Assembly: GCA_937891165.1 (NCBI GenBank)
Contig: CALAEX010000066.1
Location: forward strand, 1,242 to 65,241
Direction: 5' to 3'
Source of the DNA: an uncultured Lachnospiraceae bacterium
GTDB lineage: Bacteria; Bacillota; Clostridia; Lachnospirales; Lachnospiraceae
DNA: 64,000 bases
Of this stretch, positions 3,143 to 48,711 are shown piece after piece. Each line of letters starts with the position of its first letter. The stretch's first letter is position 1. The notes beneath the pieces are model-generated. The model worked only from the letters and a program-made list of their open reading frames with translations. It searched no databases and was not told the DNA's origin. The translations under genes were made by a program, and so were the position numbers.

Positions 3143-4306
3143 TTAAACAAATTTAAAATCGTAGAAAAATCCTTACAGGAAACTATCAAATCCAAAACTG
3201 GTCGTAAAGGTCTCAAGATGTACAAGGAAGTTAAATCTAACGTGGTTAAACCTTCCTTAGCGAAGAAAACCATCGGAGGTTTCAGTCGTGGGATTCAGAA
3301 AGAACGTCAGTTAATCGCAGACAAAAAGTATCATCAGGCGGTAAAAGAGTGGAGAGCTTCTATGCTCCGTCTTGCTCTTGAGATGGTTGATACCATCGAG
3401 TTTGCTATGAAGAAATTCGGGTATACAGAAGATGAAGCAAAGGCTTATTCCGACAGAGCACTTGCTAAAGTTTTAGTAATCAAAGAACGTCTTGCTTCTG
3501 GTAAGTATGATTCTATGATTAACGATGTTCCATTTGCAATCGAAACTTTTACAGCAGAAATCATCGCCGCATCTGGTATGGGATTGCTTGAACAGAAGTT
3601 CTTCAATTCCTGTGTGAATAGTGCTACCGAAGATTCTGAAGAAAATCTCGATGATGAGTTCGAAGATGATTCTTGGGATTTAGACGAAGAATTCCCAGAA
3701 GATTTCGAAGGAACAATCGAAGATTATGATCTCGGTGAAGAGTCTGTAGTAGAAGATTTTCGCGAAGTTGTAACTGTCGTAGATGGACCCAAAGTAGAAA
3801 TCGTTGAAGATGAAGAATACAGAAAAGCAGTTCGTCAGAGACGAATTACTTATGTAGAAAATCTTCTCATTGCTACAGGTCCAACAGTAGGATGTTATGA
3901 TGATGTCACAGACCTTCTTGATAAGCTTGGTGAAGCAGATCTTCAGAAACTTCACGATGGCGGATACGATGATGTGAGTGATAGCGATTTCTACAATCAC
4001 GTTCATACCGATATCATTACAGTAGTTACAGAGGCTTATGCTAATGCTCTTAAAAGAGAAGAAGTAAAAGCCGAAGAAACATCTGAAGAAACACCAGCAG
4101 AAGAAGCTCCGATTGAAGAATCTCAGGAACCAGAAGAAGTTCAGGTGGTTGAAGAAGTTATTGAAGAAACATCTGAAGAACCTGAAACTGCTGTTGAAGC
4201 TATAGAAGCTGCTGTAAAAGAAGTATTAGAAATAGATACCGAATCCAATAACAAATACCCTGCTAAAAAGAAGGGTAGAAAATCAGCTAATACTTCTGAA
4301 AAATAA
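3140..4306 (+). CDS. hypothetical highly acidic protein
   Basis: ATG at 3140 lies 7 nt after GGAGG. The track start at 3104 is in frame but has no RBS. C-terminal half is D/E-rich (EETSEETPAEEAPIEESQEPEE). Confidence 0.75.
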   Translation: MLNKFKIVEKSLQETIKSKTGRKGLKMYKEVKSNVVKPSLAKKTIGGFSRGIQKERQLIADKKYHQAVKEWRASMLRLALEMVDTIEFAMKKFGYTEDEAKAYSDRALAKVLVIKERLASGKYDSMINDVPFAIETFTAEIIAASGMGLLEQKFFNSCVNSATEDSEENLDDEFEDDSWDLDEEFPEDFEGTIEDYDLGEESVVEDFREVVTVVDGPKVEIVEDEEYRKAVRQRRITYVENLLIATGPTVGCYDDVTDLLDKLGEADLQKLHDGGYDDVSDSDFYNHVHTDIITVVTEAYANALKREEVKAEETSEETPAEEAPIEESQEPEEVQVVEEVIEETSEEPETAVEAIEAAVKEVLEIDTESNNKYPAKKKGRKSANTSEK

Positions 4307-5819: not shown

Positions 5820-7349
5820 ATGGATCATTCAGTACAGAATCCTGTTATTAATTTCATTGATGAAGTTAATAAACAGAATACTCTTAGTAATAGCTATGAC
5901 GCAATTAATAATGACCCTAATATTAAACTTCGCAGATTGGGCGAAACCAAACAGCAGGGTAAAGTGCTTTGTATGAATTCCATTTTGTCCAGACTCTGCA
6001 GCAATTCAATCCCAGAAATCAATGGGCGTGTTGCGAACACTCCGGATTTAGATAAAGTAGTACGTGATTATGTGGCAAGAAGAACTAATGGTCAGGATAT
6101 TGACTTTTATGTAAAAGAAGCTATTAAACGTAATCCAAAAAATACAGAAGCGATTAAGAATATTTATGAATCTGTAAGCAAAATTGTCAATGAGATGTAT
6201 ATCGAAAAAGAATTACATCCGGAAACTATTACAGATAATGACTATTCTTTTTCTCTTACACCGGAAGTTGATGATAAATTAACTGCTATTATTAGAGATA
6301 ATAACCTAGATAGTTTATCAGATGTTATCAAAGATAACGTAAGAAATAATGCAATCACTGAAGTAGAACTTGCAAAGAAAGAACGTGAAGATAGACTTGC
6401 TTTGGAAGAAGAGCTTATGAATGATGAGACCATTACTACAGAAGCTGCTTTGGAAGAAGCACTAAGAGTACGTGGATTAAATGAAAGAAAATTCTACACT
6501 CCTTCTTTATTTGAAGCGGTTATGAATTCTAAGTTTAAAGAAATGCCAGTTCTTGAAAGTATTGGTGATGTAGAATATGAATGCGAATCTGAGTATTTGA
6601 CAGAGGGTGTTCTTAAGAATATTGCGAATAAATTTACTGGTAATACAGAAGAAGCTGCAAAAGCTGCGATTGAAAAGAACCATACACAGTTCTTAGCAAC
6701 AATCGAAAAAATGTATACCGGAGTTTATTCTCAGTACCGTTCTAAAGTATCTCCAATCAATGTAGATTTAATTTCTAAATCTATTAAGAAAATTATGGCG
6801 GATTCTAGAGTTGGAAATGTAACTTACAAATCCAAAGTAAATATGTCAGAAGTGAAAGAAGCAGTTAGTAAATACAAAGAAAATACAAAAACTTTGTTTA
6901 CTGCTAAGAAATTGACAAAATTTGATGTACCTAAGAATAAGAAAGCTTATTCTGCAAATGATGCTGTAAGTGAAATGGTTAGTATTGTAAGTGCATTAGA
7001 TACATATTTTGCAAAACCGGATGTAAAATCATTCGTAAATAAAGCGAGTGCTTTTGTTACTGGTAAAGTAAGTAAATGCGATAATGCAAAAGATGTAAAC
7101 GTTACTTACAAATTAGCAATCGAATATTATATGGCAGAACTTGCTTACTATGCACAGGGTATTGAATTTGTAGCATCTGTTTCTGAATTTGCGAAAAAAC
7201 TTATGAGTAAATACAGTAATGATGCTGTAAAAGAAGCAGCTTTTGATAAAGCTATTGTAGAATATACAATGCTTAATATTTCAAAAGCATTATATCTTGA
7301 AAGCTTTAGCTTGATGGATTTACCGAATGTGATTAGAAGTTACGAATAA
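5820..7349 (+). CDS. hypothetical protein (509 aa)
   Basis: Long ORF with an AAAGGA RBS. No motif recognised. Confidence 0.75.
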   Translation: MDHSVQNPVINFIDEVNKQNTLSNSYDAINNDPNIKLRRLGETKQQGKVLCMNSILSRLCSNSIPEINGRVANTPDLDKVVRDYVARRTNGQDIDFYVKEAIKRNPKNTEAIKNIYESVSKIVNEMYIEKELHPETITDNDYSFSLTPEVDDKLTAIIRDNNLDSLSDVIKDNVRNNAITEVELAKKEREDRLALEEELMNDETITTEAALEEALRVRGLNERKFYTPSLFEAVMNSKFKEMPVLESIGDVEYECESEYLTEGVLKNIANKFTGNTEEAAKAAIEKNHTQFLATIEKMYTGVYSQYRSKVSPINVDLISKSIKKIMADSRVGNVTYKSKVNMSEVKEAVSKYKENTKTLFTAKKLTKFDVPKNKKAYSANDAVSEMVSIVSALDTYFAKPDVKSFVNKASAFVTGKVSKCDNAKDVNVTYKLAIEYYMAELAYYAQGIEFVASVSEFAKKLMSKYSNDAVKEAAFDKAIVEYTMLNISKALYLESFSLMDLPNVIRSYE

Positions 7350-8498: not shown

Positions 8499-9352
8499 AT
8501 GGCTAAAAAAGCAGTAGATACCCTCTTGGATATGGATACTCTAGTTCAAGAGGAAACAAGTAAAGTTCATAGAAAAACAATTGGACTTGTAGATGCATTA
8601 CGAGTAGATGATACAAAGAATAACTATTTTGATTGCAATGCATCTGTAGTAACTTATAAAACAGGATTCCCACAATTAGATTATTATTTGGGATATAAAA
8701 TTAATGTATATGATGATGATAATAATATCATAGATTCATATCCATCAATTGGTATTCCTGGTGGTTCCATTATTACATTTATTGGAAAACCATCCACCAG
8801 TAAAACAACTACAGCAGTACAGGTTGCTGCTAATATCGTTAGAGAATTTGAAAATGGATTCGTTATTCATTATGACCTTGAACAAGCACAGAATTACTCG
8901 AGAGTTCAAAACTTAACTAAATTTTCAATGAGTGATTTAAAAGCTGGTAAATATATTCTCAGACAGGAAAGAAACACTGTAGGAGATATTAAAAGTTCTA
9001 TCGTGAAGATTTGGAAAAAGAAAATCGACAATCCGGATATTTATAAATATAATTCGGGTAAGAAAAATGAATTCGGTGAAGATATTATTTTATATGAACC
9101 AACAGTCGTAATTCTCGATTCCATTGCTACACTTAGTACAGGTTTGAATGAAAATGATAAAAAAGACTTAGCTAAGATGGAAGAAGTAGGAAGTCAAACA
9201 GAAAGAATGAGAATTACTGGAGAAATTGGTAGATTCTTTAATGAAGTATTGCCATATCTTCGTGAAGCGAATATTATTCTTATCTGTATTAACCAGATTA
9301 AAGATAAACCACAATTGGGATTCTGCCCTGAACCATCAGAAATCCTTTATTT
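8499..9352 (+). CDS. RecA-family recombinase, exon 1 of 2
   Basis: Walker A GKPSTSKTT, Walker B VVILDSIATL, then ILICINQIKDKP (compare RecA IFINQIR). The track tail 9353-9377 is read-through into the intron. The 3' boundary is tentative. Confidence 0.75.
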
Positions 9353-10631
9353 AGCACAAAATGAGTCCTTAGTTTAGAAGTAAATATACTATTTAATTTA
9401 TTTATAAACGAATAAATAAATTAATATAAATTTACTGGTGAGGACCTATATAGTAATATATAGAAAATAAACCTTCTTAATTGCTGGAAACTCTCGATAT
9501 GTTGTTAGTACAGTAAAGTGTGACAATCTAACAAATAGAGACAATCAGCAGCCAAGACCAATTATGTAAATTTGTATTAAAATAAATTAGGAGATAAATC
9601 AATATGAATTTACGAGAAAAATTATATGAAATTGGTATGACATATGATGAATTAGATAGAAATTCATTACCATATGAAGTATTTATTCCTATGGATACAT
9701 CATTATACCCCATCATACCAAAGAATAAATTTATGATAAGTAATAAAGGAAGAATTTATGATTGTCATAAAAAAGAATTTAAGAAAATTTCATTACCGAA
9801 AAATGAAGATACTAGCGTATCATACTATACAGTAAATATTGGAGATGAAAAATATTTAGTCCACCGATTAATGCTGTCATCGTTCGAACACCTCGGTGAT
9901 ATCGAATTAATGAAGACACTCCATGTTGATCATAAAGATGGTAATAAACACAATAATGAACTGTATAATTTACGCTGGGCTACAAATAAAGAAAACACAA
10001 TTTATGCAAGAGATTTAGGATTATTAAATCCTAGACGTGGTGAAACACATCCATGTGCTACTATAACTGAGAAGCAAGCACGGGAAATATGTGAATTACT
10101 ATCTACAGGAAAATATTCAAAATCTCAAATTTCTAAAATGCTAAATGTACCATACGATGCTGTTTGTGGTATTTATATGGGTGTATCATGGGTTTGGATT
10201 TCGAAAGATTATAATGTTCAAAATAAACTAATAAAAGGATCTGGTTATCCAAAAGTTTTTACATTTGATCAATTACATATGATATGTAAATATTTTTCTG
10301 AAAATAAAAAACCCGATGATATGAGTGTTAGAAAATATTGTTTGAATACATTACATAGTATAGGTTATGATGAAAATATTATAACAGAGGGTGTATTGAA
10401 TGGTGTTCGAAGTATATATAATAAAAAACGGTATATCGAAATAACTTCTCAATATAATTGGTAAGGTTCAACGACTATCGAAAGGGTAGCTTAGTAAAAT
10501 AAGTGAGTAACCGAGTAGAGTAGGATACATATATCCGAAATGGAAGGCTCCTTATAGTTTATAATGAATTATAAGGATGAAGATATAGTCTGAACTATAT
10601 AGAGATATATAGATTAACATAATTAACCAGG
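9353..10631 (+). mobile_element. group I intron 1 (IA2-like) carrying an HNH homing endonuclease gene
   Basis: 5' core cttaattgctggaaactc...gacaatcagcagccaagacc (9476-9558). 3' core gttcaacGACTATcgaaa (P7 5' at 10473-10478) and agatATAGTCtga (P7 3' at 10585-10590). Candidate P1: exon tttattt (9346-9352) with gaataaa (9410-9416). Boundaries are accurate only to within a few nt. Confidence 0.8.
9604..10464 (+). CDS. intron-encoded HNH homing endonuclease
   Basis: HVDHKDGNKHNNELYNLRWATNKEN is an HNH motif. AGGAG RBS. Lies entirely inside intron 1. Confidence 0.85.
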   Translation: MNLREKLYEIGMTYDELDRNSLPYEVFIPMDTSLYPIIPKNKFMISNKGRIYDCHKKEFKKISLPKNEDTSVSYYTVNIGDEKYLVHRLMLSSFEHLGDIELMKTLHVDHKDGNKHNNELYNLRWATNKENTIYARDLGLLNPRRGETHPCATITEKQAREICELLSTGKYSKSQISKMLNVPYDAVCGIYMGVSWVWISKDYNVQNKLIKGSGYPKVFTFDQLHMICKYFSENKKPDDMSVRKYCLNTLHSIGYDENIITEGVLNGVRSIYNKKRYIEITSQYNW

Positions 10632-11058
10632 AGGAAAAAGTCCGCAGTTCAACGCAAGTGTATTGCTGAAATTTATTGCAGTCGGTAGTGCTAAATATGA
10701 ATTAGAAGATGATGGTTTTGATGGATTTGGTGTTAAGGTTATGATTATTAAATCCAGAGGAAATCAGGCAGGTAGATTTGTAAATTTAATTTACGATAAA
10801 GTAAGAGGTATTGACCCCATTCGTTCAAGTATTGCATTTGCAAAAGAACTTGGACTTACAGGGGGAAATAAAAATAGTTTTTATTTCAACTCTCATAAAG
10901 AAGAGAAATTCTCGTTGAAGAATGTAAATCAGGAGTTTAGAGAAAGAAGACATTTATTCAAGATTATGTTTGATAATATCAGACCAGTACTTGAAAGTAA
11001 ATTATCTATGTTAACTCCGGATGAATTAGAACCAGTTGATGAAGCTATGGATTACTAA
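10632..11058 (+). CDS. RecA-family recombinase, exon 2 of 2
   Basis: The frame is open from 10627. GKSPQFNASVLLKF aligns with RecA GGNALKFYASVRL. The joined ORF 8499..9352+10632..11058 is 1281 nt and in frame. The track Met at 10663 is an artefact. Confidence 0.7.
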
Positions 11059-12374: not shown

Positions 12375-13622
12375 ATGAAAGAGAAGTACAATCTTAAAGA
12401 TGCCCTAAGAGCGTGTGACCTAGAATATCTGGATGACCGTTCTATAGAGGGTAAAGGAATGCTTACAACACCGCAGTATATCAATAGTATGCGAAGTGTT
12501 ATGTTTGCATCGCATTTAAACCAGTTTAAGAATATGGTACAACCAGATTTTCCTCAGTTCTTTACTGGTGGTGAAAATGTGGTTGGTAAGTATTCGGACG
12601 GTTATTTGAAACTTAACGAATCTACTGTATATAGAAAAATTGTTAAGTTTGAAGGATTAGTAGAAAATCCGACCGTATATGTTTTGTTTGTGTATAACAA
12701 AGTAAAGAAACGATTTGAAGTTATTAGACGAAAACCGAATGAAGACTTAATTGAAGTATTTGGATATAAATACGATAATACAGTCATTGACTCCTTTAAA
12801 GAAGGAGATGAAATTAGTGAAGACACTATAGCATTTAAGTCTACTTCCTATGATGAAAGTATGAACTATTCGTATGGGCGAGATGTCATCACACAGTTAT
12901 CTTTTGAACCGTTTACATCAGAAGATGCAGCTATCGTATCAGAAGAAATTCAAGACCTTCTTAGAAATGTAGAGGTTGAAGAAAATATTGCTACATTGAA
13001 TGAGAATGATTTTCCTCTTAATATTTATGGAGACGACTTAGAGTATAAAACATTTCCAGATATCGGGGAATTTTCTAAAGGTATCATTATGGCTACTAGA
13101 AGAAAATTTAATAATCAGGTCTTGTTTGATTTTAAAGAAGATATGCTTAGTAAAGTAACAGACACCGATACTAGATATTATCTGAATGGTAAAGTTGTTG
13201 ATATTGAGATTTATTGTAATAACGAGGATTTACAGGATAACTCATTTTATCATCAGATTTATAACTATTGGTGTTATCAGAATGCTTACTATAAAGATAT
13301 TAAAAGAACTTGTGAAGAGATTATGAATTCAGGAGAAGACTACACAAGGGATATTGATTATCTTTATAAACAAGCATGTTACATGTTAGACCTTAAAAAG
13401 AAATGGAAAGAAAAAGACAATGCTTTCTCCAATGTGCAAGTACATATCCTTGTGGAGAGAGAAATACCATTAGCAGTAGGACAGAAAATTTCGGGTCGTT
13501 ATGGAAATAAATCGGTAATATCTGATATTCGTAAGAAAGAAGATATGCCATTCTATTATGATGCTAATGGTAATAAAGTTCATGTACAGCTTATACTATC
13601 AGTGCTAGCTATTATAAACCGT
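12375..13622 (+). CDS. RNA polymerase beta subunit C-terminal half, exon 1 of 4
   Basis: SMRSVMFASHLNQ (compare NRALMGANMQRQ). GQKISGRYGNKSVISDI (compare GDKxAGRHGNKGVxS). Ends at ...LAIINR (compare PSRMN). 5' splice site: P1 aaaccgT (13616-13622) with Gcggttt (13633-13639). Confidence 0.9.
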
Positions 13623-14762
13623 AAACTGTTGTGCGGTTTTAAAACCTCTTTAATTGCTGGGAACTCTTTAATTAGACAATCAGCAGCCAAGACCTTAAAA
13701 TTATAGAAATAAATAATAAAAGGAGTGATCGATATAAAAAATATCATAGATATGTTATATCATGATGAAAAATGGAGAAAGATAAGATATAAAAATATTT
13801 GTAAAGATATATACGAAATTAGTTCATACGGTCGTGTAAGAAAAATTTCAAATAAAAGAATCTTATCATCTGCAATGGCTCCAAATGGTTACTTACGTAT
13901 AAACTTAATAATAGATGAATTTATAGAAAATAGTAATGAACATAAAAGGAATGCATTTTCAATTCATGTTTTAGTATTTACACATTTTTGTGATAAAAAT
14001 GATGTTGAAACATATTTGATTGGTAATTTATTTGAACGGAGATATGTTGTTAATCATAAAGATGGTAATAAGACAAATAATTATTATGATAATCTTGAAT
14101 TAATGACATATTCGGAAAATAATAAACATGCTTCAAAATTAGGGTTGATGCCTAAAGGAGAAAATAAACCAAATTCTCCAAGTTGGGTTACAAATGAATT
14201 AGTTGAAAAAATTTGTAAAATGCTAGATAAGGGCGAACCTAATTGGCGTATTATTCAGACACTTGAATTGCCAAATACGAAATATACAAATACATTGATA
14301 TCTCATATTTATTCAAAACAAGGTTGGGAATTTATATCAGAAAAATATAATTTCTATAATTCAAATTCTAAGTTTAAACGAAGTACTACATATTCATTAG
14401 AAATGATTACTTATATATGTAAACTATTGGAACATGGATATTCTAATAGAGATATAGCAGATATAGTCTGTAATAAATTCGAAATGGGTAAAGATAAAAT
14501 ACATGCTATACGAATAATCGTATCACGTATTAGAAATAAACAAAAATATATAGATATTAGTAAAAACTATAATTTTTAAGGTAAGGTTCAACGACTATCG
14601 AACACATAGCTTGAGAGAAATGCTTAAGTGAATAAGTAAGTAGAGTAGGAGAAATCCGAAACGGGAGGTAATGCATATCTGGTAATAGGATATGCTTTAA
14701 AGATATAGTCTGAACTATATAGGAATATATAGAAGTATTTATATACGTTAACAAAAGCAATG
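13623..14762 (+). mobile_element. group I intron 2 (IA2-like, subtype A) carrying an HNH homing endonuclease gene
   Basis: P1 as above. P10: ctgttgt (13626-13632) with 3' exon acaacag (14763-14769), 7 bp. Core: taaaacctctttaattgctgggaactctttaattagacaatcagcagcc, gttcaacGACTATcgaa, ccgaaacgggagg, agatATAGTCtga. The omega G is 14762. Confidence 0.9.
13725..14579 (+). CDS. intron-encoded HNH homing endonuclease
   Basis: VVNHKDGNKTNNYYDNLELMTYSENNKHA is an HNH motif. N-terminus has EKWRKI...YEISSYGRVRK. GTG start after AAAGGAG. Confidence 0.85.
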   Translation: MIDIKNIIDMLYHDEKWRKIRYKNICKDIYEISSYGRVRKISNKRILSSAMAPNGYLRINLIIDEFIENSNEHKRNAFSIHVLVFTHFCDKNDVETYLIGNLFERRYVVNHKDGNKTNNYYDNLELMTYSENNKHASKLGLMPKGENKPNSPSWVTNELVEKICKMLDKGEPNWRIIQTLELPNTKYTNTLISHIYSKQGWEFISEKYNFYNSNSKFKRSTTYSLEMITYICKLLEHGYSNRDIADIVCNKFEMGKDKIHAIRIIVSRIRNKQKYIDISKNYNF

Positions 14763-15287
14763 ACAACAGCAGCCGTTATTGGGGAATTGGCTACGAACTT
14801 TATTGGAAAACGAGTTAGTGCTCATATGAAGACTCTTAAGACTATGAAAGAAAAAGAGAAAATATTATTTGATGTTCTTAAGATGTACAATGTTGCCTAT
14901 TGTGAATTCTTGACTAAGAAATATAAAGCAATGACTACAGAGGAGAAGAAGAACTTTTTACAGTACTGCGAAGATGTTAAGATTCACTTTAATCAACCAT
15001 CTATGGGTGAAAAAGAACCTATGTTTTATCGTATTATGAATCTGAAGGAAAAATATAAAGATATTTTGAATCCAGATGAAATGTGGGTTCATCAGTTTGG
15101 TAGAGATATCCGTTGTGTTATGGATGGATATATTGCCAATATGTATATTATTACTCTGAAACAAACAGCGAAGAAAGGTTTCTCAGTAAGAGGAATTGGT
15201 GCTGTTAGTGCTAAGGGTATACCGGAAAGAAGTTATAAATCAAAATCTCATAAAGATTTATATTCATCAACCGCTATTAGATTCGGT
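14763..15287 (+). CDS. RNA polymerase beta C-half, exon 2 of 4
   Basis: Begins TTAAVIGELATNFIG (compare NIGQILETHLG) and ends ...AIRFG. 525 nt, in frame. The Met at 14760 in the track is intron sequence. Confidence 0.88.
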
Positions 15288-15511
15288 GACCGAATTTGCC
15301 GAAGTAAAACTTCTTTAATTGCTGGGAACTCTTTAATTAGACAATCAGCAGCGAAGCTTAGAAATAAGAACGTTCAACGACTAGCTCTAGTAGCGTAGGA
15401 CTTAATAAAAACTCTTTAAGTTCGAAACAAGAAGCATTTAATTATGAAGATATAGTCTGATACTTATAGGAATATAAGAGAGTAAATTCGTAAGAATTAT
15501 AAACGTAATAG
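15288..15511 (+). mobile_element. group I intron 3 (subtype B, no ORF)
   Basis: P1: ttcggT (15282-15287) with Gccgaa (15298-15303). P10: gaattt (15292-15297) with 3' exon gaattc (15512-15517). Core: gttcaacGACTAgct...tagcgtagga...ttcgaaa...gaagatATAGTCtgatac. Close paralog of intron 8. Confidence 0.88.
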
Positions 15512-15526
15512 GAATTCGAAACGCTT
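15512..15526 (+). CDS. RNA polymerase beta C-half, 15-nt micro-exon (EFETL); 3' end tentative
   Basis: RFG|EFE restores the universal beta RFGEME motif. The last 6 nt, acgctt, pair with gggcgt (15534-15539) as P1 of intron 4. Confidence 0.6.
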
Positions 15527-15772
15527 AGAAATTGGGCGTCATACACAGAGATGTGTATTGCTTAAACCTCTTTAATTGCTGGAACCTCTTTAAGTAGACA
15601 ATCAGCAGCGAAGTTCGAAAGGAAACGTTCAACGACTATCGAAAGACTATTGAAAAATAGAATCGAGTAGAGTAGGAGAAATCCGAAACGGGAGGTATCT
15701 GTAAAAGATAAAGATATAGTCTGGCTATATATGAAAATATATAGGTTAATTAGCAATTTCTGTATTGCAATG
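15527..15772 (+). mobile_element. group I intron 4 (subtype A, no ORF)
   Basis: Full core (ttaaacctctttaattgctggaacc..gacaatcagcagcg..gttcaacGACTATcgaaag..ccgaaacgggagg..agatATAGTCtgg). Candidate P1 at 15521-15526/15534-15539, P2 hairpin atacac/gtgtat (15541-15558). 3' end gcaatG|cag matches intron 2 (gcaatG|aca). The 5' boundary is less certain than the 3' boundary. Confidence 0.75.
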
Positions 15773-16300
15773 CAGCCAGAAGAAGTTGCATTAATCCATG
15801 CATTTTACCGCACTTCAGTAAAAGCACGAAGAGACTTTGGTAAAGCCTTACTTAATAATGAACCTATTATTACAGTAGGAAAAACTTATGAATCCAGAGT
15901 AGCTGAGTTCTTCGAAATCATTTTAAAATCGTTAGGATTTAGATTAGAATTCTTAGATTCTGATGATGATTTTGTAGAACTTAGTGTAGATGATTTACAG
16001 TGGTTTGAATTAGCAAATGGTAAATCAGTATTCTGTTCTGAGTATGATAAATATATTATTGATCGTAGAAATGAGATTGGTGCTGAAATCTTAGAAGAAT
16101 ATGGTGCATTAAATATTGATGAATTGAATGAGATGATTGATGACGAAATTAAAGACAGACAGTATTTTATTGCTAGTGATATAAAAGACGTTTATTTGAA
16201 TTGCGTTGAAATTGAACCTACATTAGTGAGCAGAGATATTGTATCTTGTGAAGAGATTTCTAGTCAGTTAGAATTAATTGACGTTCCGGTGGAAGTTTAA
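15773..16300 (+). CDS. RNA polymerase beta C-half, exon 4 of 4
   Basis: QPEEVALIHAFY... (compare EMEVWALEAYG / EMERDCLIAHGA). ESRVAEFFEIILKSLGF (compare PESFKVLIKELQSLG). The joined 4-exon ORF is 2316 nt and in frame. Confidence 0.85.
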   Translation, partial: QPEEVALIHAFYRTSVKARRDFGKALLNNEPIITVGKTYESRVAEFFEIILKSLGFRLEFLDSDDDFVELSVDDLQWFELANGKSVFCSEYDKYIIDRRNEIGAEILEEYGALNIDELNEMIDDEIKDRQYFIASDIKDVYLNCVEIEPTLVSRDIVSCEEISSQLELIDVPVEV

Positions 16301-35993: not shown

Positions 35994-37427
35994 TTATTCA
36001 ATTCCTCGAATTTCTCTTCTTTTCTTACCACCATTATCGGTACCATAAATTTCACTCATATTAGGAACTTTGCTCATGAGCAATGGATCGATATATGATG
36101 TACCAGTTCTTTCAGTAACAATTTCATCACTAAGTAACTGACGTTTGATATATTGTACAGATAATCCAAGACCTGGAGATTTATTATCTTCCAATGCTTT
36201 TCTTACTGTAATGATTGTATATGGTTCTAATTTAGTTCTTGTAAAATCAGGTCTATCGTATGTATTGATATCACTACGAACTAAACGGTTGATAATACAT
36301 TCTCCTGCTAAGCTAGATGCTTTGATTCCGGATTCTACCAACAACTCTACAAATCTCTGTGTTACTTCAGATATTGTCTGAGGTTCACCATCTTTTCTAT
36401 TTCTATTGAGAAGGTGCATCATAGAGTACAATGGTTTAGTCAATTCATTGTTAAGAATATCCATTTCTAAGATTTTAACAGAGTCGTCCAAATCTTTAAA
36501 TTTGATATATCCACGACTCTTACTCATAAGAGCTAATGCTTCATCAGTAATAAAGATTTCTTTACCCTCATTTTCTAATTGAATCTTATCCATTTCACCA
36601 GTTTCCATGTCAACCACATAGAAAATTCCACCGGCAATGAATGTATTATAACCATTCTGAGAGTCGAACTCATCTACTTTCTCAATTACATTTGTTGGAA
36701 TGTAAATTGCATATTTGTTGATATCTTCAACTTCATCATTTTCATCTACATTTGGATACACTTCTCCAGATGATAATGTAAAGTATTTGTCAAAGGCATC
36801 GTTGAATCGCAAAACTTCTGATTTTGTTGTAAGAAGATGTTTTGAGGAAAGAACGTTTTGCTCTAATTCTTTTGTCACTTCTTCTGATTCAAAACCTGCA
36901 GCACCAGCAGCAATATCATAATTAAGACCAGCAGTTCTACCAAAACATTTAGCACATACATGGTCTCCAAGAGCACATGTTACTGGAGAACGTAACCAAA
37001 TAGTTTCTCCAACTAAATGCTTATCTTTCTTAGCATTAAGAAGCTGCAATTCATCATCACCATCTAATTTATAGTAACGATTATTAAACTTCTTAAGAAT
37101 CTTTTTATTTGAAATATGAATTGGTAACAAATGTTTTGTATCACAGTCTGATATTGTTGTTGATAACTTAAGCGTCTTTGCTAACTGAAGAACCAGCTTA
37201 CCAAAGTTTCCTGCAAGACCCATAACTGTCTTATTTAAGATAAGAGATTTTCTTGCAGCGGAAGCATCAATATATACATAAGATGGTCTATCAAGTCCTC
37301 TAATAAGTGTAGAGTTTTCAATAGCTACTGGCATAATAACACCATCTAATGTAGGTTTTAATCCTTGGGCAATTGTAAATTCTGCGAACTGTTTCGTTAA
37401 TATTAATACGAAGTCGTTACTTTCGTA
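35994..37427 (-). CDS. RNA polymerase beta' subunit C-terminal half, exon 2 of 2
   Basis: FTIAQGLKPTLDG (compare MRGLMAKPDG). ASAARKSLILNKTVMGLAG (compare THGARKGLADTALKTANSG). RSPVTC..VCAKCFGRTAG. The track start (TTG at 37430) is the intron 3' end. Confidence 0.85.
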   Translation of the reverse strand, partial: YESNDFVLILTKQFAEFTIAQGLKPTLDGVIMPVAIENSTLIRGLDRPSYVYIDASAARKSLILNKTVMGLAGNFGKLVLQLAKTLKLSTTISDCDTKHLLPIHISNKKILKKFNNRYYKLDGDDELQLLNAKKDKHLVGETIWLRSPVTCALGDHVCAKCFGRTAGLNYDIAAGAAGFESEEVTKELEQNVLSSKHLLTTKSEVLRFNDAFDKYFTLSSGEVYPNVDENDEVEDINKYAIYIPTNVIEKVDEFDSQNGYNTFIAGGIFYVVDMETGEMDKIQLENEGKEIFITDEALALMSKSRGYIKFKDLDDSVKILEMDILNNELTKPLYSMMHLLNRNRKDGEPQTISEVTQRFVELLVESGIKASSLAGECIINRLVRSDINTYDRPDFTRTKLEPYTIITVRKALEDNKSPGLGLSVQYIKRQLLSDEIVTERTGTSYIDPLLMSKVPNMSEIYGTDNGGKKRREIRGIE

Positions 37428-37687
37428 CAAGTTATTTCTAACTTCTTTATATTCCTATAAAGACTAGACTATATCACTATCCTATTATTCATTACAAGTA
37501 ATAGGATACCTCCCATTTCGAACCCACTTGAGTTCTACTCTACTAAGTTCTTTATAAATTATTCATTTATAAATCTTTTCGATAGTCGTTGAACCATTAT
37601 TTTGGCTGCTGATTGTCCAATGAAAGAGTTTCCAGCAATTAAAGAGGTTTAAGCAGCATACATTTCTGTATGAGAGCACATTGTTTT
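37428..37687 (-). mobile_element. group I intron 9 (subtype A, no ORF)
   Basis: The - strand reads ttaaacctctttaattgctggaaactc..ggacaatcagcagcc..gttcaacGACTATcgaaaag..ttcgaaatgggagg..gtgatATAGTCtag. Candidate P1 is agcaT/Gtgct, and the P2 hairpin catac/gtatg matches the architecture of intron 4. Boundaries are inferred from frame plus P1. Confidence 0.75.
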
Positions 37688-38392
37688 ATGCTTAATTCCA
37701 GTTCTCGCTTTCAATATAGTACCAATTGGATTACCCGGATCATTTTTATATATCTCCAATTCTTCTTCCAAATATCTATCTATTGTATCTTCAATTTCAT
37801 GTGGTGGCATGGATTCAGGGAATCTACATTCCATAATCTCTTTTACCCTGGGGTACTTCTGATACATATCCGTAAACGTGAAATATGAGAAATTGAGATT
37901 CATAATTAACGAGAAATCCAATGAGATACCACGCAATCTATTACAAACATCAGATACAGATTGGTTAATAGTGATTTCTTTTACATTGAAATCTCGAAGA
38001 GTCATAATAATTTTTTCATTAATCCATGGGTCCAAATCATATTCAGGTTCTAACATAAATTTTGTTCCATCCATGACATATTTATCATTTAAGAACTTAA
38101 TTGAATTTACGTGAACGAATGGCTCCCATAATATTAAGTTAATTATAAAGTGTCTAAGCTGAACCGTATAGGTTTGTTTGTCATCGCTATAGAACTTAAA
38201 TGTAACAGGATATTCTCGACATTCTTTTTTCTCGATACATCCTTTAATAATTGAGTACATCTTCTGAAAGAAATCTTCATAAATTTCAATCGTTGTCATA
38301 TAGTACTCCAATGTGTAACAACTCTGAATGAGCTGTCCCAGATCATAAGTATTTTCAATGACTGGGATTTCATAAGTTTGTTGTTTTCCCAT
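37688..38392 (-). CDS. RNA polymerase beta' subunit C-terminal half, exon 1 of 2
   Basis: AAGGAG RBS. 705 nt, in frame, ending ...ILKARTGIKH (compare ..SGARG). The track tail KTMCSHTEMYAA* is read-through into the intron. Confidence 0.8.
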
Positions 38393-46023: not shown

Positions 46024-46072
46024 TTTTATGTGTATAACGCATAAAAATATAATTGAAAGGAGTAAATTTATA

Positions 46073-46938
46073 ATGGGCAAAAAGAGAGCTGAAGTAAAAC
46101 GTCTTAATTTTGACGTAGAAGCTTATAATGATGTCATTAATGGTAGAGGGTTCTTTGTTGTAGATCCGCCAGAAGTAGATATCGATGAGACCAGAAAGAA
46201 AGCTTTGTATGGTCCGCAATCGCCATTATATGGAAGCACCTTCTCTGATGAGCAGTCCTTCCAAGAACGTTACCGTTGTAAATGCGGTGAGTTCAAAGGA
46301 ACTATCTTTGAGGGGGAAACATGTCCGAAATGTAATACAAAAATCGAATTTCGTGATGTAGACCCTTACATGACAGGATGGATTCCTCTTGGTGCTAAGA
46401 AAATTATCGCACCACATTACTACCGTATTTTACAACAAGCTATCGGTAGAGAAGTTTTCCCAGAAATTATTTTCTTGAAAATGAAAGTAACAAAGAATGG
46501 AAGACGAGAAAAATTAACGGAAGAAGAGATGAAAGAATTCGAACCTAAATCTCCATTTTATGGAATTGGGTTAGAAGAATTTAGAGAAAGATATTTTGAG
46601 ATTATTGATTATTTTAAGAAGTTAAAACCTGCAAAAGCAGAGACTTTTGACCGTCTTAGAAAAGAGGTAAACTCTGTATTTACATCTCATATTCCTGTAT
46701 ATACCACATTACTTAGACAGCAGTCAGTTACCAGTGAGAACTTCTATTTTACCGGTATTGATAAACAGATTAATACTTGTGTAAACTTAGCAAGAAACTT
46801 ACGTGATTCGGAAGAAATTGAAACACCAGTTATCTTAAATAGAATTCAGTCCAGAGCAAATGCTATTTGGGAAGCTAACTTTGAGCTTCTTAACACAAAA
46901 GATGGATTAATTCGTGATCAGTTGATTGGTGGGTCGCT
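46073..46938 (+). CDS. RNA polymerase beta' subunit N-terminal half, exon 1 of 5
   Basis: ATG follows AAAGGAG. Zn-ribbon CKCGEFKG..CPKCNTKIE (compare rpoC CxCG..CxxC). Ends ..RDQLIGGS + ct. P1: ggtcgcT (46932-46938) with Ggtgacc (46948-46954). Confidence 0.9.
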
Positions 46939-47218
46939 TAACAGTTGGGTGACCTTAAACCTATCTAACTGCGGGAACGTATTGAAAGGGATTAATTACC
47001 AAATCATATCAGTAATGAATATGATGGCAAAGAGTAACTACCTTTGGTATGGTAAAAAGATTAATCACTAATATAATCCGCAACGAAGACTCTTTCATTA
47101 GAGTAACGCTCAACGACTATCGAAAGACTATTTTTATTAAAATAGAATCGAGTAGAGTAGGAGAAATCCGAAACGGTAGGCAATCTAAATATTAGATTGA
47201 AGATATAGTCTAAATATG
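46939..47218 (+). mobile_element. group I intron 5 (subtype A variant, no ORF)
   Basis: P1 as above. P10: agttg (46943-46947) with caact (47219-47223). Core: gctcaacGACTATcgaaag..ccgaaacggtagg..gaagatATAGTCtaa. The omega G is 47218. Confidence 0.88.
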
Positions 47219-47252
47219 CAACTTTACAGCACGCAATGTCATTGTTCCCGAT
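47219..47252 (+). CDS. RNAP beta' N-half, 34-nt micro-exon (L)NFTARNVIVPD
   Basis: Restores GGSLNFTARNVIVPD (compare GKRVDYSGRSVIxxxP). The last 7 nt, tcccgaT, pair with Gtcggga (47266-47272). Confidence 0.88.
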
Positions 47253-47680
47253 TGATCAAACGTAGGTCGGGATTAAACCTCTTTAATTGCGGGAACGAAT
47301 TTTATAATAATACTTACTAAATTATGATAGTGATATTATAATGGCAATGGGTAATTCCAAAGGTATAGTAAAAAAAGTATTATTTTAATCAATCCGCAGC
47401 TAAGCTTCTTGATTTAAATATAATATAAATGGAGGTGATTTATTGAATGAATTTGAATTAAAAGTCAATTTAGAATTGTATTCATTAAATGATTTGGATT
47501 TAGAGATTTGGAAAAATATAAATCAAGAAGAAAGTTCAACGACTATCGAAAACATAGTGTAAGAGAAATACTTATATGAAGAAGTGAGTAGAGTAGGAGA
47601 AATCCGAAACGGGAGGTATTGTATATCTGGTAATAGGATATACTTTAAAGATATAGTCTAATAATAATTTATTATTATTG
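47253..47680 (+). mobile_element. group I intron 6 (subtype A) with a degenerate homing-endonuclease remnant
   Basis: P1 at 47246-47252/47266-47272. Core: ttaaacctctttaattgcgggaac..aatccgcagc..gttcaacGACTATcgaaaac..ccgaaacgggagg..agatATAGTCtaa. The omega G is 47680. Confidence 0.88.
47443..47562 (+). pseudogene. remnant of an HNH-type homing endonuclease N-terminus inside intron 6
   Basis: GGAGGTG RBS followed by a 39-codon ORF (LNEFELKVNLELYSLNDLDLEIWKNINQEE...) that runs into the P7 core. EIWKNI resembles EKWRKI in the 13725 endonuclease. Confidence 0.4.
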
Positions 47681-47999
47681 CCATCATTAAAAGATAACCA
47701 AGTAGATTTGGGTTATAGCTGTTTTTATGTAATGTTTAAATTAAAGATTATCCATTATCTTATGAAGATTCATGATATTTCATTAGCGCAGGCTAATAGT
47801 ATTTGGGAGGAAGGATATTCTTTCGATCAAAGAATTTATGAAATCATGAAAATGATTATTGAGATTGAAAAGCCATCTGTTGTAATCAACAGAAATCCCA
47901 CACTCAATTACTATTCAATCATTTTAATGGATATACGTCAGGTAAAACCTGATAAGGATTGCTATACATTAGCAGTTCCATTAAGTATATTACCTGGGT
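47681..47999 (+). CDS. RNAP beta' N-half, exon 3 of 5
   Basis: PSLKDNQVDLGYS.. (compare P.L.L.QCGLP). VVINRNPTLNYYSI (compare LLNRAPTLHRLGI). Ends ..AVPLSILPG + t. The track Met at 47678 is intron sequence. Confidence 0.9.
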
Positions 48000-48291
48000 A
48001 AACAAATCTGCAATTGCTCAGGTTAAACCTCTTTAACTGTCTGGAAGTTATCAATACATATAAGTTACTAAACTAAGTAGAAATATATTAGTGATAGTGA
48101 AAATATTTATATGTGATATAATCAGCAGCGAAGATTCTTTAAGTAGAATAACGTTCAACGACTATCGAAAAGATGTATATGTGAATAACGTATATAGAAC
48201 TTAGTAGAGTAGGAGAAATCCGAAACGGGAGGTATTAAGTATCTTGTAATGAGATATTTAGTAAAGATATAGTCTAATAAAATATTTATTG
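48000..48291 (+). mobile_element. group I intron 7 (subtype A, no ORF)
   Basis: P1: cctgggT (47993-47999) with Gctcagg (48016-48022). P10: ctgca (48008-48012) with tgcag (48296-48300). Core: ttaaacctctttaactgtctgg..aatcagcagcg..gttcaacGACTATcgaaaag..ccgaaacgggagg..agatATAGTCtaa. The omega G is 48291. Confidence 0.88.
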
Positions 48292-48308
48292 TAAATGCAG
48301 ACTTCGAT
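48292..48308 (+). CDS. RNAP beta' N-half, 17-nt micro-exon (L)NADFD
   Basis: ta aat gca gac ttc gat completes ILPG-L-NADFD. Nt 48302-48308 form P1 of intron 8. Confidence 0.9.
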
Positions 48309-48540
48309 AAACCCGAAAGTCTCTGTCGAAGTAAAACTTCTTTAATTGCTGGGAACTCTTTAAATAGACAATCAGCAGCGAAGCTCTTAATAGAGAACGT
48401 TCAACGACTAGCTTTTATAGCGTAGGATACTATAAAATCTTTTAGTATTCGAAATGGGGAGCAACGAAAGTTGAAGATATAGTCTGATACCTTTAGGAAT
48501 AAAGGAAAGTGAATTCTAGATAAGAATTGTAAACGTAACG
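48309..48540 (+). mobile_element. group I intron 8 (subtype B, no ORF)
   Basis: P1: cttcgaT (48302-48308) with Gtcgaag (48325-48331). P10: gtctct (48319-48324) with ggagac (48541-48546). Core nearly identical to intron 3. The omega G is 48540. Confidence 0.9.
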
Positions 48541-48711
48541 GGAGACATTTTAAATATCATTGGAATTATGGACCCTGCTATCAAACATATGTTTAGAAAG
48601 TTTAATCCTATTAAATATATGATTACATCAAGAGATAGTGGATTACTCAATGATTATTTTGCAGTAACAAAAGGTCAGAAGATTGACTTATTCAACTTCT
48701 GTCATATGTAA
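48541..48711 (+). CDS. RNAP beta' N-half, exon 5 of 5
   Basis: Begins GDILNIIGIMDP, completing NADFD|GD. The joined 5-exon ORF is 1407 nt and in frame, with the stop at 48709-48711. Confidence 0.9.
   Translation, partial: GDILNIIGIMDPAIKHMFRKFNPIKYMITSRDSGLLNDYFAVTKGQKIDLFNFCHM

Follow-up and report, generated by a model that had tools for sequence, protein, structure and literature searches.

Micro-exons between neighbouring group I introns in non-virion RNA polymerase genes of a putative AR9/PBS1-like jumbo phage

Introduction

How can an exon of 17 nucleotides (nt) be kept in a messenger RNA when nearly all of its bases appear to be guide partners of the two group I introns that flank it? 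This question is raised by a 64,000-nt stretch of DNA, here called the window (positions 1,242 to 65,241 of the forward strand of contig CALAEX010000066.1, assembly GCA_937891165.1), and in particular by its gene for the beta'-N subunit of a non-virion RNA polymerase (RNAP). The gene is split by four introns, numbered 5 to 8, and the micro-exon, which encodes NADFD of the catalytic loop, lies between introns 7 and 8. A comparable exon of 14 nt is found in the beta-C gene. As judged from their sequence features, these micro-exons probably arose by independent insertion of introns at neighbouring hot spots and would be handled by independent, sequential self-splicing.

By its proteins, the window is assigned to an uncultured AR9/PBS1-like jumbo phage. 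Its phage proteins match AR9/PBS1-like, phiR1-37-like and phiKZ-like jumbo phages in protein-level searches, and a megablast search gave no near DNA match to the region among GenBank phages. The spliced beta'-N product has AR9 7S00_d as its best match in the Protein Data Bank (PDB; E 3e-34), the spliced beta-C product matches AR9 7S00_C (E 2e-71), and the downstream part of a split gene on the - strand matches AR9 beta'-C, 7S00_D (E 2e-39). This homology of the subunits, together with the NADFDGD motif present after splicing, identifies an AR9-type non-virion RNAP.

Nine group I introns were found in the 64 kb, eight of them in three non-virion RNAP subunit genes. On the + strand, both core motifs, AGATATAGTC and TCAACGACTA, were located eight times and in the order typical of such introns, which agrees with the eight introns counted in an earlier note on this DNA, and one further pair on the - strand adds a ninth. 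Matches to the Rfam model RF00028 lie at 15268-15479, 15516-15743, 46914-47229 and 48295-48506, and a permissive scan adds 47972-48283.

Exon and intron structure of the beta'-N gene

Group I introns generally recognise some 5-8 nt of the upstream exon by base pairing (helix P1), and in many cases also several nt of the downstream exon (helix P10). In the beta'-N gene, the reading frame and conserved motifs served to place the junctions, which were then compared with relatives. The map is as follows.

46073-46938, + strand: beta'-N exon 1; its last 8 nt (46931-46938, GGGUCGCU) form P1 of intron 5
46939-47218, + strand: intron 5, 280 nt, no open reading frame (ORF); internal guide sequence (IGS) 46948-46955, P10 guide 46943-46947, terminal G at 47218
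47219-47252, + strand: exon of 34 nt, coding for (L)NFTARNVIVPD; P10 of intron 5 uses 47219-47223 and P1 of intron 6 uses 47246-47252
47253-47680, + strand: intron 6, 428 nt, with a remnant ORF at 47443-47562; IGS 47266-47272
47681-47999, + strand: beta'-N exon 3, PSLKDN...LSILPG and the first base of a Leu codon; 47992-47999 (ACCUGGGU) form P1 of intron 7
48000-48291, + strand: intron 7, 292 nt, no ORF; P10 guide 48007-48015 (UCUGCAAUU), IGS 48016-48023 (GCUCAGGU), terminal G at 48291
48292-48308, + strand: micro-exon of 17 nt, taaatgcagacttcgat, coding for (L)NADFD; P10 of intron 7 uses 48293-48301 and P1 of intron 8 uses 48301-48308
48309-48540, + strand: intron 8, 232 nt, no ORF; P10 guide 48319-48324 (GUCUCU), IGS 48325-48332 (GUCGAAGU), terminal G at 48540
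48541-48711, + strand: last beta'-N exon, GDILNIIG...CHM and stop; 48541-48546 (GGAGAC) form P10 of intron 8

The spliced beta'-N coding sequence (CDS) is an open frame of 1407 nt and 468 amino acids (aa). An in-frame ATG also lies upstream of the exon 1 start, at 46028. Three intronless relatives from IMG/VR contigs (L001-L003; 85% aa and 75% nt identity) have an uninterrupted gene of 1404 nt, with which the spliced gene is collinear base for base, without a gap at any of the four junctions. The alignment to AR9 7S00_d also continues through 'lnftarnvivpdp' and 'lsilpglnadfdgdilnii'. On account of this collinearity, the boundaries of the 17-nt and the 34-nt exon stand as the earlier note had drawn them.

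An in-frame stop (taa, 47999-48001), which starts with the last exon base, is located at the 5' splice site of intron 7. By contrast, the frame of exon 1 stays open 133 nt into intron 5.

Intron cores and mobility

Core anchors (P3, P4', J6/7-P7, P3' and P7') were present in all seven mapped introns (2 to 8), and removal of the introns restores an uninterrupted conserved reading frame in beta'-N as well as in beta-C. The gathering score of RF00028, 50 bits, was reached by introns 3, 4, 5 and 8 (76.2, 91.2, 52.4 and 74.4 bits). The consensus of the P4 5' strand is unmatched in introns 5-7, where variants of it were recognised by eye. Intron 6 is 95-99% identical to an intron of the related locus L013 and possesses all core anchors, with the P4 5' strand in variant form. 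By core, P1 and terminal G, all seven introns are read as complete group I ribozymes with a predicted, guanosine-dependent self-splicing activity. The proposal that each micro-exon is bounded by two separate and complete introns was therefore upheld, since every one of these introns has its own core, P1 and terminal G.

Introns 3 (beta-C) and 8 (beta'-N) are paralogues, with a mean column identity of 87% including short flanks; for the introns by themselves the identity is estimated at about 80%. In the P3-P7 core the two hardly differ. In an alignment read by eye, the stems assigned as P6, P7.1/7.2, P8 and P9 differ by compensatory changes, which argues that both introns have been selected as structures. 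The targets of the two are alike in the two genes (agaTTCGGT^Gaa and gacTTCGAT^Gga, with ^ at the insertion point), and the guides are fitted to each; this pattern suggests ectopic spread to a look-alike site. The large extra segment that follows P7 and precedes the 3' strand of P3 is presumed by us to represent P7.1/P7.2, in which case the family would be IA-like.

Homologous introns of relatives carry HNH and GIY-YIG ORFs. The L013 homologue of intron 6 is 997 nt long (L013 1614-2610) and has an intact ORF for a 215-aa HNH endonuclease. Intron 6 of the window is a deletion derivative of it, in which about 570 nt are gone, the flanks are 95-99% identical and 39 codons are left as a remnant.

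Splice sites and guide pairings

With junctions fixed independently by homology, U at position -1 and a terminal G were found in 7/7 mapped introns (in intron 4 only with the boundary at 15753). P1 helices of 5-8 base pairs (bp) with a U.G pair at the splice site could likewise be drawn for all seven:

Intron 2: AAACCGU/GCGGUUU
Intron 3: UUCGGU/GCCGAA
Intron 4: ACGCU/GGCGU, 5 bp
Intron 5: GGGUCGCU/GGUGACCU
Intron 6: UCCCGAU/GUCGGGA
Intron 7: ACCUGGGU/GCUCAGGU
Intron 8: 48301-48308 ACUUCGAU with 48325-48332 GUCGAAGU, 8 bp, P=0.007

P10, assessed as pairing of the bases just 5' of the guide with the start of the 3' exon, comprises 7 bp in intron 2, 7 in intron 3 (GAAUUCG/CGAAUUU), 9 in intron 4, 5 in intron 5 (CAACU/AGUUG) and 6 in intron 8. 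For intron 7, bases 48293-48301 (AAAUGCAGA) and 48007-48015 (UCUGCAAUU) form 8/9 pairs with one A.A mismatch and an offset of 1 nt (-8.4 kcal/mol, P=0.007). Against random exon sequences of the window, a P10 as good or better was obtained in 0.02-2.4% of trials for introns 2, 3, 4, 7 and 8. Over all guide pairings, chance probabilities were 0.0002-0.08, apart from P1 of intron 4 (P=0.2). Duplex energies range from -3.3 to -8.4 kcal/mol among the P10 helices that can be drawn and from -6 to -12 kcal/mol among those of P1.

A main claim of the earlier note was that the short exons consist almost entirely of guide partners. For the two shortest this was confirmed, as P10 and P1 take up 16 of the 17 bases in one and 12 of the 14 in the other; in the 34-nt exon they occupy 12. 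The pairing of the 17-nt exon with P10 of intron 7 and P1 of intron 8 was also recovered, and the two helices abut, with base 48301 common to both. In the 34-nt exon, caact in P10 of intron 5 and tcccgat in P1 of intron 6 are as had been proposed. Such near-total coverage is beyond chance, yet it is largely a consequence of exon shortness, because a P10 of 5-9 nt and a P1 of 5-8 nt nearly fill an exon of 14-17 nt.

A different 'P1' of intron 8, suggested by cmscan (AGACUU/AAGUCU), was rejected, as it has no U.G pair at the homology-fixed junction, whereas GUCGAAGU gives one. It may be an alternative pairing (-8.2 kcal/mol).

The beta-C gene and its 14-nt micro-exon

The beta-C gene is composed of the following parts.

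12375-13622, + strand: beta-C exon 1, ending in ...AIINR
13623-14762, + strand: intron 2, 1140 nt, with an HNH/NUMOD4 ORF at 13725-14579; P10 ACAACAG/CUGUUGU
14763-15287, + strand: beta-C exon 2, TTAAVIGEL...AIRFG; 15282-15287 form P1 of intron 3
15288-15511, + strand: intron 3, 224 nt; P10 guide 15291-15297, IGS 15298-15303, terminal G at 15511
15512-15525, + strand: 14-nt micro-exon gaattcgaaacgct, encoding EFET and 2 nt of a Leu codon; 15512-15518 form P10 of intron 3 and 15521-15525 form P1 of intron 4
15526-15753, + strand: intron 4, 228 nt; P10 guide 15526-15534, IGS 15535-15539, terminal G at 15753
15754-16300, + strand: last beta-C exon, c aat ttc tgt..., NFCIAMQPEE...

This micro-exon had been described as 15 nt long. 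With the 3' exon at 15746, a 15-nt version would add LIS (3 aa; RFGEFETL-LIS-NFC), which is seen in no homologue, and with the 3' exon at 15755 it would need a terminal C. All homologues, including one at 97% identity, read RFGEFETL-NFC. When spliced after 15525 and after G15753, and in no other way, beta-C aligns to L017 over 1212 nt at 94% nt identity with 0 gaps; L017 has none of the three beta introns of the window and an intron of its own at GR^YGNKS. A 70% identical locus, L018, carries a homologue of intron 4 alone at the same place, with the junctions ...acgct^tgaaattgggcgtc... and ...aaatcg^caatttc. The gap-free fit to L017 and the junctions of L018 thus set the micro-exon at 14 nt and intron 4 at 15526-15753, and the corrected boundary yields a terminal G and a 9-bp P10. 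The assignment of gaattc to P10 of intron 3 was retained, as part of the 7-bp helix, and acgctt as P1 of intron 4 had to be replaced by the 5-bp ACGCU/GGCGU.

The short exons had further been said to encode catalytic-site residues, and this holds for NADFD. It does not hold for NFTARNVIVPD, which is switch-2-like, or for RFGEFETL; both of these we take to be conserved core motifs of RNA polymerases outside the catalytic site.

Insertion sites and micro-exons in relatives

A search with beta'-N returned 390 homologues at E<=1e-5, mostly full-length proteins of about 466-550 aa, and intron-bearing loci were reached through truncated homologue entries. Among these relatives about 10 insertion sites are known in beta'-N, five of them within 24 nt of the catalytic loop. 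The sites, counted on the 1407-nt CDS, and the loci in which they are occupied are:

866, site of intron 5: window, L013, L020, L024-27
about 882, TAR^NVI: L005, L022, L024/25
900, site of intron 6: window, L013, L026
1124, NPTL^N: L005, L013, L020, L022, L024-26
about 1208, site of the upstream intron of L018: L018
1219, site of intron 7: window, L020
1230, NAD^FD, GIY-YIG intron: L008-10, L013, L020
1236, site of intron 8: window only
1239, DYDG^D: AR9 g270/g271
1242, DFDGD^, HNH intron: L022, L024, L018

Wherever neighbouring sites are both occupied, a micro-exon results. In L020 (ENA ERZ28594527 scaffold_236), an 11-nt micro-exon (taaatgcagat, 7079-7089) lies between intron 7 and the GIY-YIG intron, and P10 of the former and P1 of the latter overlap by 4 nt, a more extreme arrangement than in the window. 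In L024 and L025, which come from two independent samples, a 16-nt micro-exon (caacttcaccgcgcgt, about 3520-3535) separates an ORF-bearing version of intron 5 from the TAR^NVI intron. The neighbours of a given intron vary: intron 7 stands next to the GIY-YIG intron in L020, the homologue of intron 4 is alone in L018, and intron 5 occurs without intron 6 in L020 and L027.

A family-specific scan of IMG/VR for tandem introns gave 8 matches, of which two are likely real pairs, five were read as chance in coding DNA and one (L029) was left unclassified. The two likely pairs, in other viral contigs (L033 38-139 and L034 4149-4248, IMG/VR), consist of introns of the same family and enclose exons of about 26 nt by eye. 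A pattern scan for an NADFD micro-exon between two introns had 0 matches in IMG/VR, and the three matches of the corresponding JGI metagenome scan were due to chance and were not introns. A search for related loci in IMG/VR with the beta protein returned nothing.

Several peculiarities were noted in individual loci. In L018 (ENA ERZ28633347 scaffold_68740, 1-560), a beta' exon (LPGLNADFDGD) is followed by one intron and then by an exon of beta (GNKSVIADI...); the contig is probably an assembly chimera that arose from near-identical intron cores. Its apparent 34-nt NADFDGD micro-exon was therefore used only with caution as an independent example, and the contig shows that phages rich in introns call for care in metagenome assembly. 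In L005 (about 6030-6060), the TAR^NVI intron has a good P1 and a 9-bp P10, but A rather than a terminal G precedes the frame-preserving 3' site, and this copy may be defective, mis-assembled or unusual. L020 has an IS605 OrfB/TnpB-like gene (1259-2572) about 2.4 kb upstream of beta'-N, and the window is without such a gene at the corresponding place.

Selection and co-variation of exons and guides

Between the window and L013, 70 of the 1407 CDS positions differ, with differences in all exon pieces and just two aa changes. Since so many nucleotide differences lead to so few replacements, every beta'-N exon piece is under purifying selection. The differences are unevenly spread: 11 fall within 55 nt around NADFDGD, where the introns of the two loci differ (binomial P=7e-5), and one within 148 nt around introns 5 and 6, which both loci have (P=0.005 for a number this low).

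The window alleles ggG, aaU, gaC, uuC and ggA are those that pair with the window's own guides, and gaU of L013 provides the U required at -1 by its own NAD^FD intron. In that intron, the exon gcA gat of L013 is accompanied by the guide GUCUG and gcC gat of L008 by GUCGG, a compensatory change; the TAR^NVI intron shows compensatory pairs in P1 and in P10 between L022 and L005. The earlier note had proposed tight co-evolution. A match and co-variation of exon codons and guides are indeed seen, whereas mutual co-evolution is not favoured; the simplest reading would be that guides track an exon constrained by the protein and that exon flanks are co-converted during homing.

A possible splicing pathway and its alternatives

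We propose that mobile group I introns of one family repeatedly colonise split non-virion RNAP genes and home into their most conserved codons, namely the Mg-binding loop NADFDGD, the switch-2-like NFTARNVI, NPTLN and RFGEFE. Where two close sites are occupied in one genome, the DNA between them would become a micro-exon. Each intron would act as an independent ribozyme and splice by the standard two-step pathway, one after another and probably in 5' to 3' direction during transcription. Step one of intron 7 would not need the micro-exon, as its P1 is located in the preceding long exon, and step two could use P10 once the 17 nt have been transcribed, at a time when the 232 nt of intron 8 are yet to be made. 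Once ligated, the 17 nt would form the last part of a long exon upstream of intron 8. On paper, the reverse order would be equally workable. The micro-exon would thus serve first as 3' exon of the upstream and later as 5' exon of the downstream intron, so that no simultaneous role would be required, and both introns would be removed with the micro-exon kept. Its retention in the mature mRNA would be expected because the protein needs NADFD and skipping shifts the frame, and purifying selection on the downstream exons points in the same direction. None of the exon lengths of 14, 17 and 34 nt is a multiple of 3, so that exon skipping would yield only frameshifted products.

Some observations weigh against this proposal. 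We infer splicing, its order and the retention of micro-exons from sequence only, and ribozyme cores 17 nt apart may interfere with each other in ways invisible to sequence analysis. Intron 7 scores 32.7 bits (E 5.6e-6), under the gathering threshold; intron 6 has no match to RF00028, and no P10 was found for it when the bases 5' of its guide were compared with the 3' exon. P10 of intron 7 contains an internal mismatch besides its offset, and P1 of intron 4, at just 5 bp, reaches only P=0.2 by itself. As intron 8 (NADFD^GD) was found in the window alone, its guides are without direct comparative support.

A different account, possible but rather doubtful as the reason for the accumulation, is compatible with this splicing pathway. 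It holds that tandem ORF-less introns are kept because they break the recognition sites of homing endonucleases, and that micro-exons are a by-product of an arms race for endonuclease immunity. The enzymes would come from introns of sister phages during co-infection, GIY-YIG at NAD^FD and HNH at DFDGD^. Sister phages about 95% identical in nt do bear different, largely alternative introns 6-23 nt apart in one motif, the window codon gaC takes away the U required at -1 by the GIY-type intron, and synonymous differences cluster at the non-shared sites, a clustering that passive co-conversion in homing explains equally well. A precedent is the intron endonuclease gp210 of PhiPA3, which interferes with a co-infecting phage according to the available text of PMC11620839. 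However, the endonuclease target sites are presumed ones, and L020 contains intron 7 and the GIY-YIG intron together, so that intron 7 does not exclude the latter. It would also be conceivable, and this was the emphasis of the earlier note, that the two introns of each pair are coupled through their micro-exon, with competition of P10 and P1 imposing an obligatory order or a regulated skipping that tunes polymerase expression. The abutting helices that share base 48301, the 4-nt overlap in L020 and the group I exon skipping on record for phages (Twort orf142 and SIOphi; available text of PMC3073962 and PMC11878797) would suit such a coupling. We regard it as improbable, since sequential splicing in either order removes the conflict, and loss of any of the three exons would put the rest out of frame and take essential motifs away, which leaves no useful isoform. 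Moreover, the same introns occur alone or beside others in relatives (intron 7 in L020, the intron 4 homologue in L018, intron 5 in L020 and L027), which argues against obligatory coupling.

The arrangement could in principle be an assembly artefact or a decaying pseudogene with micro-exons devoid of biological meaning. Assembly programs can be misled by intron cores that recur, as the apparently chimeric contig L018 illustrates, and intron 8 occupies its site in the window alone. Nevertheless, the exon 1 protein of the window is on record in NCBI, Logan and ENA assemblies, analogous micro-exons are present in independent assemblies (L020 and three similar contigs; L024 and L025 from two samples), the alternative junctions share only 10 nt, too short for a k-mer mis-join, and each exon piece is under strong purifying selection with all splice-site rules satisfied, which makes an artefact or a pseudogene highly improbable. 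The likelihood that the members of a pair make up a single composite intron (a twintron or one long intron), with the intervening segment absent from the mRNA, is close to negligible: physical proximity of the two introns and nothing more speaks for it, whereas a separate P1 with a U.G pair, a separate full core and a separate terminal G are present in each. The stretches of 14, 17 and 34 nt between them are coding sequence that is collinear with homologues, they encode exactly the residues found there in every intronless homologue, and removing them shifts the frame.

Other interrupted genes in the window

At about 37430-37650 on the - strand, the ninth group I intron, a further member of this family, splits the gene with the beta'-C match (ORFs 37649-38392 and 35994-37430). 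A further intron, at about 9380-10620, interrupts a gene for a RecA/KaiC-like ATPase (AAA_25, E 4e-6). The ORFs of this region are:

8499-9377: ORF flanking the intron
9604-10464: HNH/NUMOD4 ORF within the intron
10663-11058: ORF flanking the intron

Relation to known systems and significance

The closest counterpart is in AR9 itself, where the GenBank record gives g270 as a two-piece CDS with the HNH endonuclease gene g271 inside the intron. The gene family is the same, the intron family is the same (...taaacctctttaattg..., gttcaacgactatcgaaa and aagatatagtct are in common), and, by inspection of the sequence, the intron splits this catalytic loop as well (DYDG^D), at a point 3 nt further downstream than intron 8. 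AR9 differs in having a single intron with an endonuclease gene and no micro-exon, whereas introns 7 and 8 of the window are ORF-less.

Several group I introns per phage gene are known for Bastillevirinae and Twort. The available text of PMC11878797 and PMC3073962 describes phage genes with two or three introns, among them the ribonucleotide reductase gene of phiNIT1, where cDNA sequencing revealed a small exon between two group I introns; in SIOphi and Twort orf142, part of the transcripts have the 5' splice site of an intron linked to the 3' site of the following one. Those cases concern other genes (DNA metabolism, terminase, tail) and have RNA evidence, whereas the window is known from its DNA; exon sizes, a tiling of P10 and P1 as seen here and multiple alternative sites are not part of the published description in that text. 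In placozoan mitochondrial cox1, a 1-nt micro-exon lies between two group IB introns (PMC5436844). There too, a second group I intron was inserted beside the first in a conserved active-site codon and the introns are independent, but the system is organellar, the intron subgroup is another one, and the splicing problem is more extreme, because a 1-nt exon cannot form a normal P1. With own P1 and terminal G of each intron and a coding match, the exons of the window belong by their structure with those of placozoan cox1 and phiNIT1, where a micro-exon is likewise flanked by two group I introns that are independent of each other. Gut jumbo phages can have about 18 introns per genome (PMC12880540). 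Because group I micro-exons are already known in mitochondria and in one phage, the window is an extreme, unusually dense case of a known phenomenon, and no new mechanism is implied.

PhiPA3 gp210 belongs, like the introns described here, to a jumbo phage with a mobile group I intron, and the endonuclease acts against a co-infecting related phage; it differs in its Pseudomonas nucleus-forming phage lineage, its single intron and the lack of a micro-exon, as given in the available text of PMC11620839. By analogy, interference of this type is a possible reason for the build-up of introns in polymerase genes. It is a still more speculative and rather unlikely idea that the stacked ORF-less introns around the catalytic-loop codons are more than parasites and act as shields, by destroying the DNA targets of endonucleases from competing sister phages, and that the RNAP genes of jumbo phages are a battleground of intron-based interference. 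If it were true, micro-exons of 11-17 nt with tiling or overlapping P10 and P1 would mark the packing limit for a spliceable mRNA.

Automatic gene prediction breaks these polymerase genes into pieces in which the catalytic motif is entirely lost, and the annotation of jumbo phages therefore needs intron-aware models. For the biology of the introns, the locus and its relatives form a natural series, in which the number of introns in the same essential gene, at 75-95% nt identity, varies from zero to four over about ten sites. The series comprises micro-exons of 11, 14, 16, 17 and 34 nt and paralogous introns retargeted to similar sequences in two genes. This series lets one ask for the minimal spacing of two splicing group I ribozymes, for the need of P10 when the 3' exon is tiny, how guides retarget, and whether neighbouring introns protect against each other's endonucleases.

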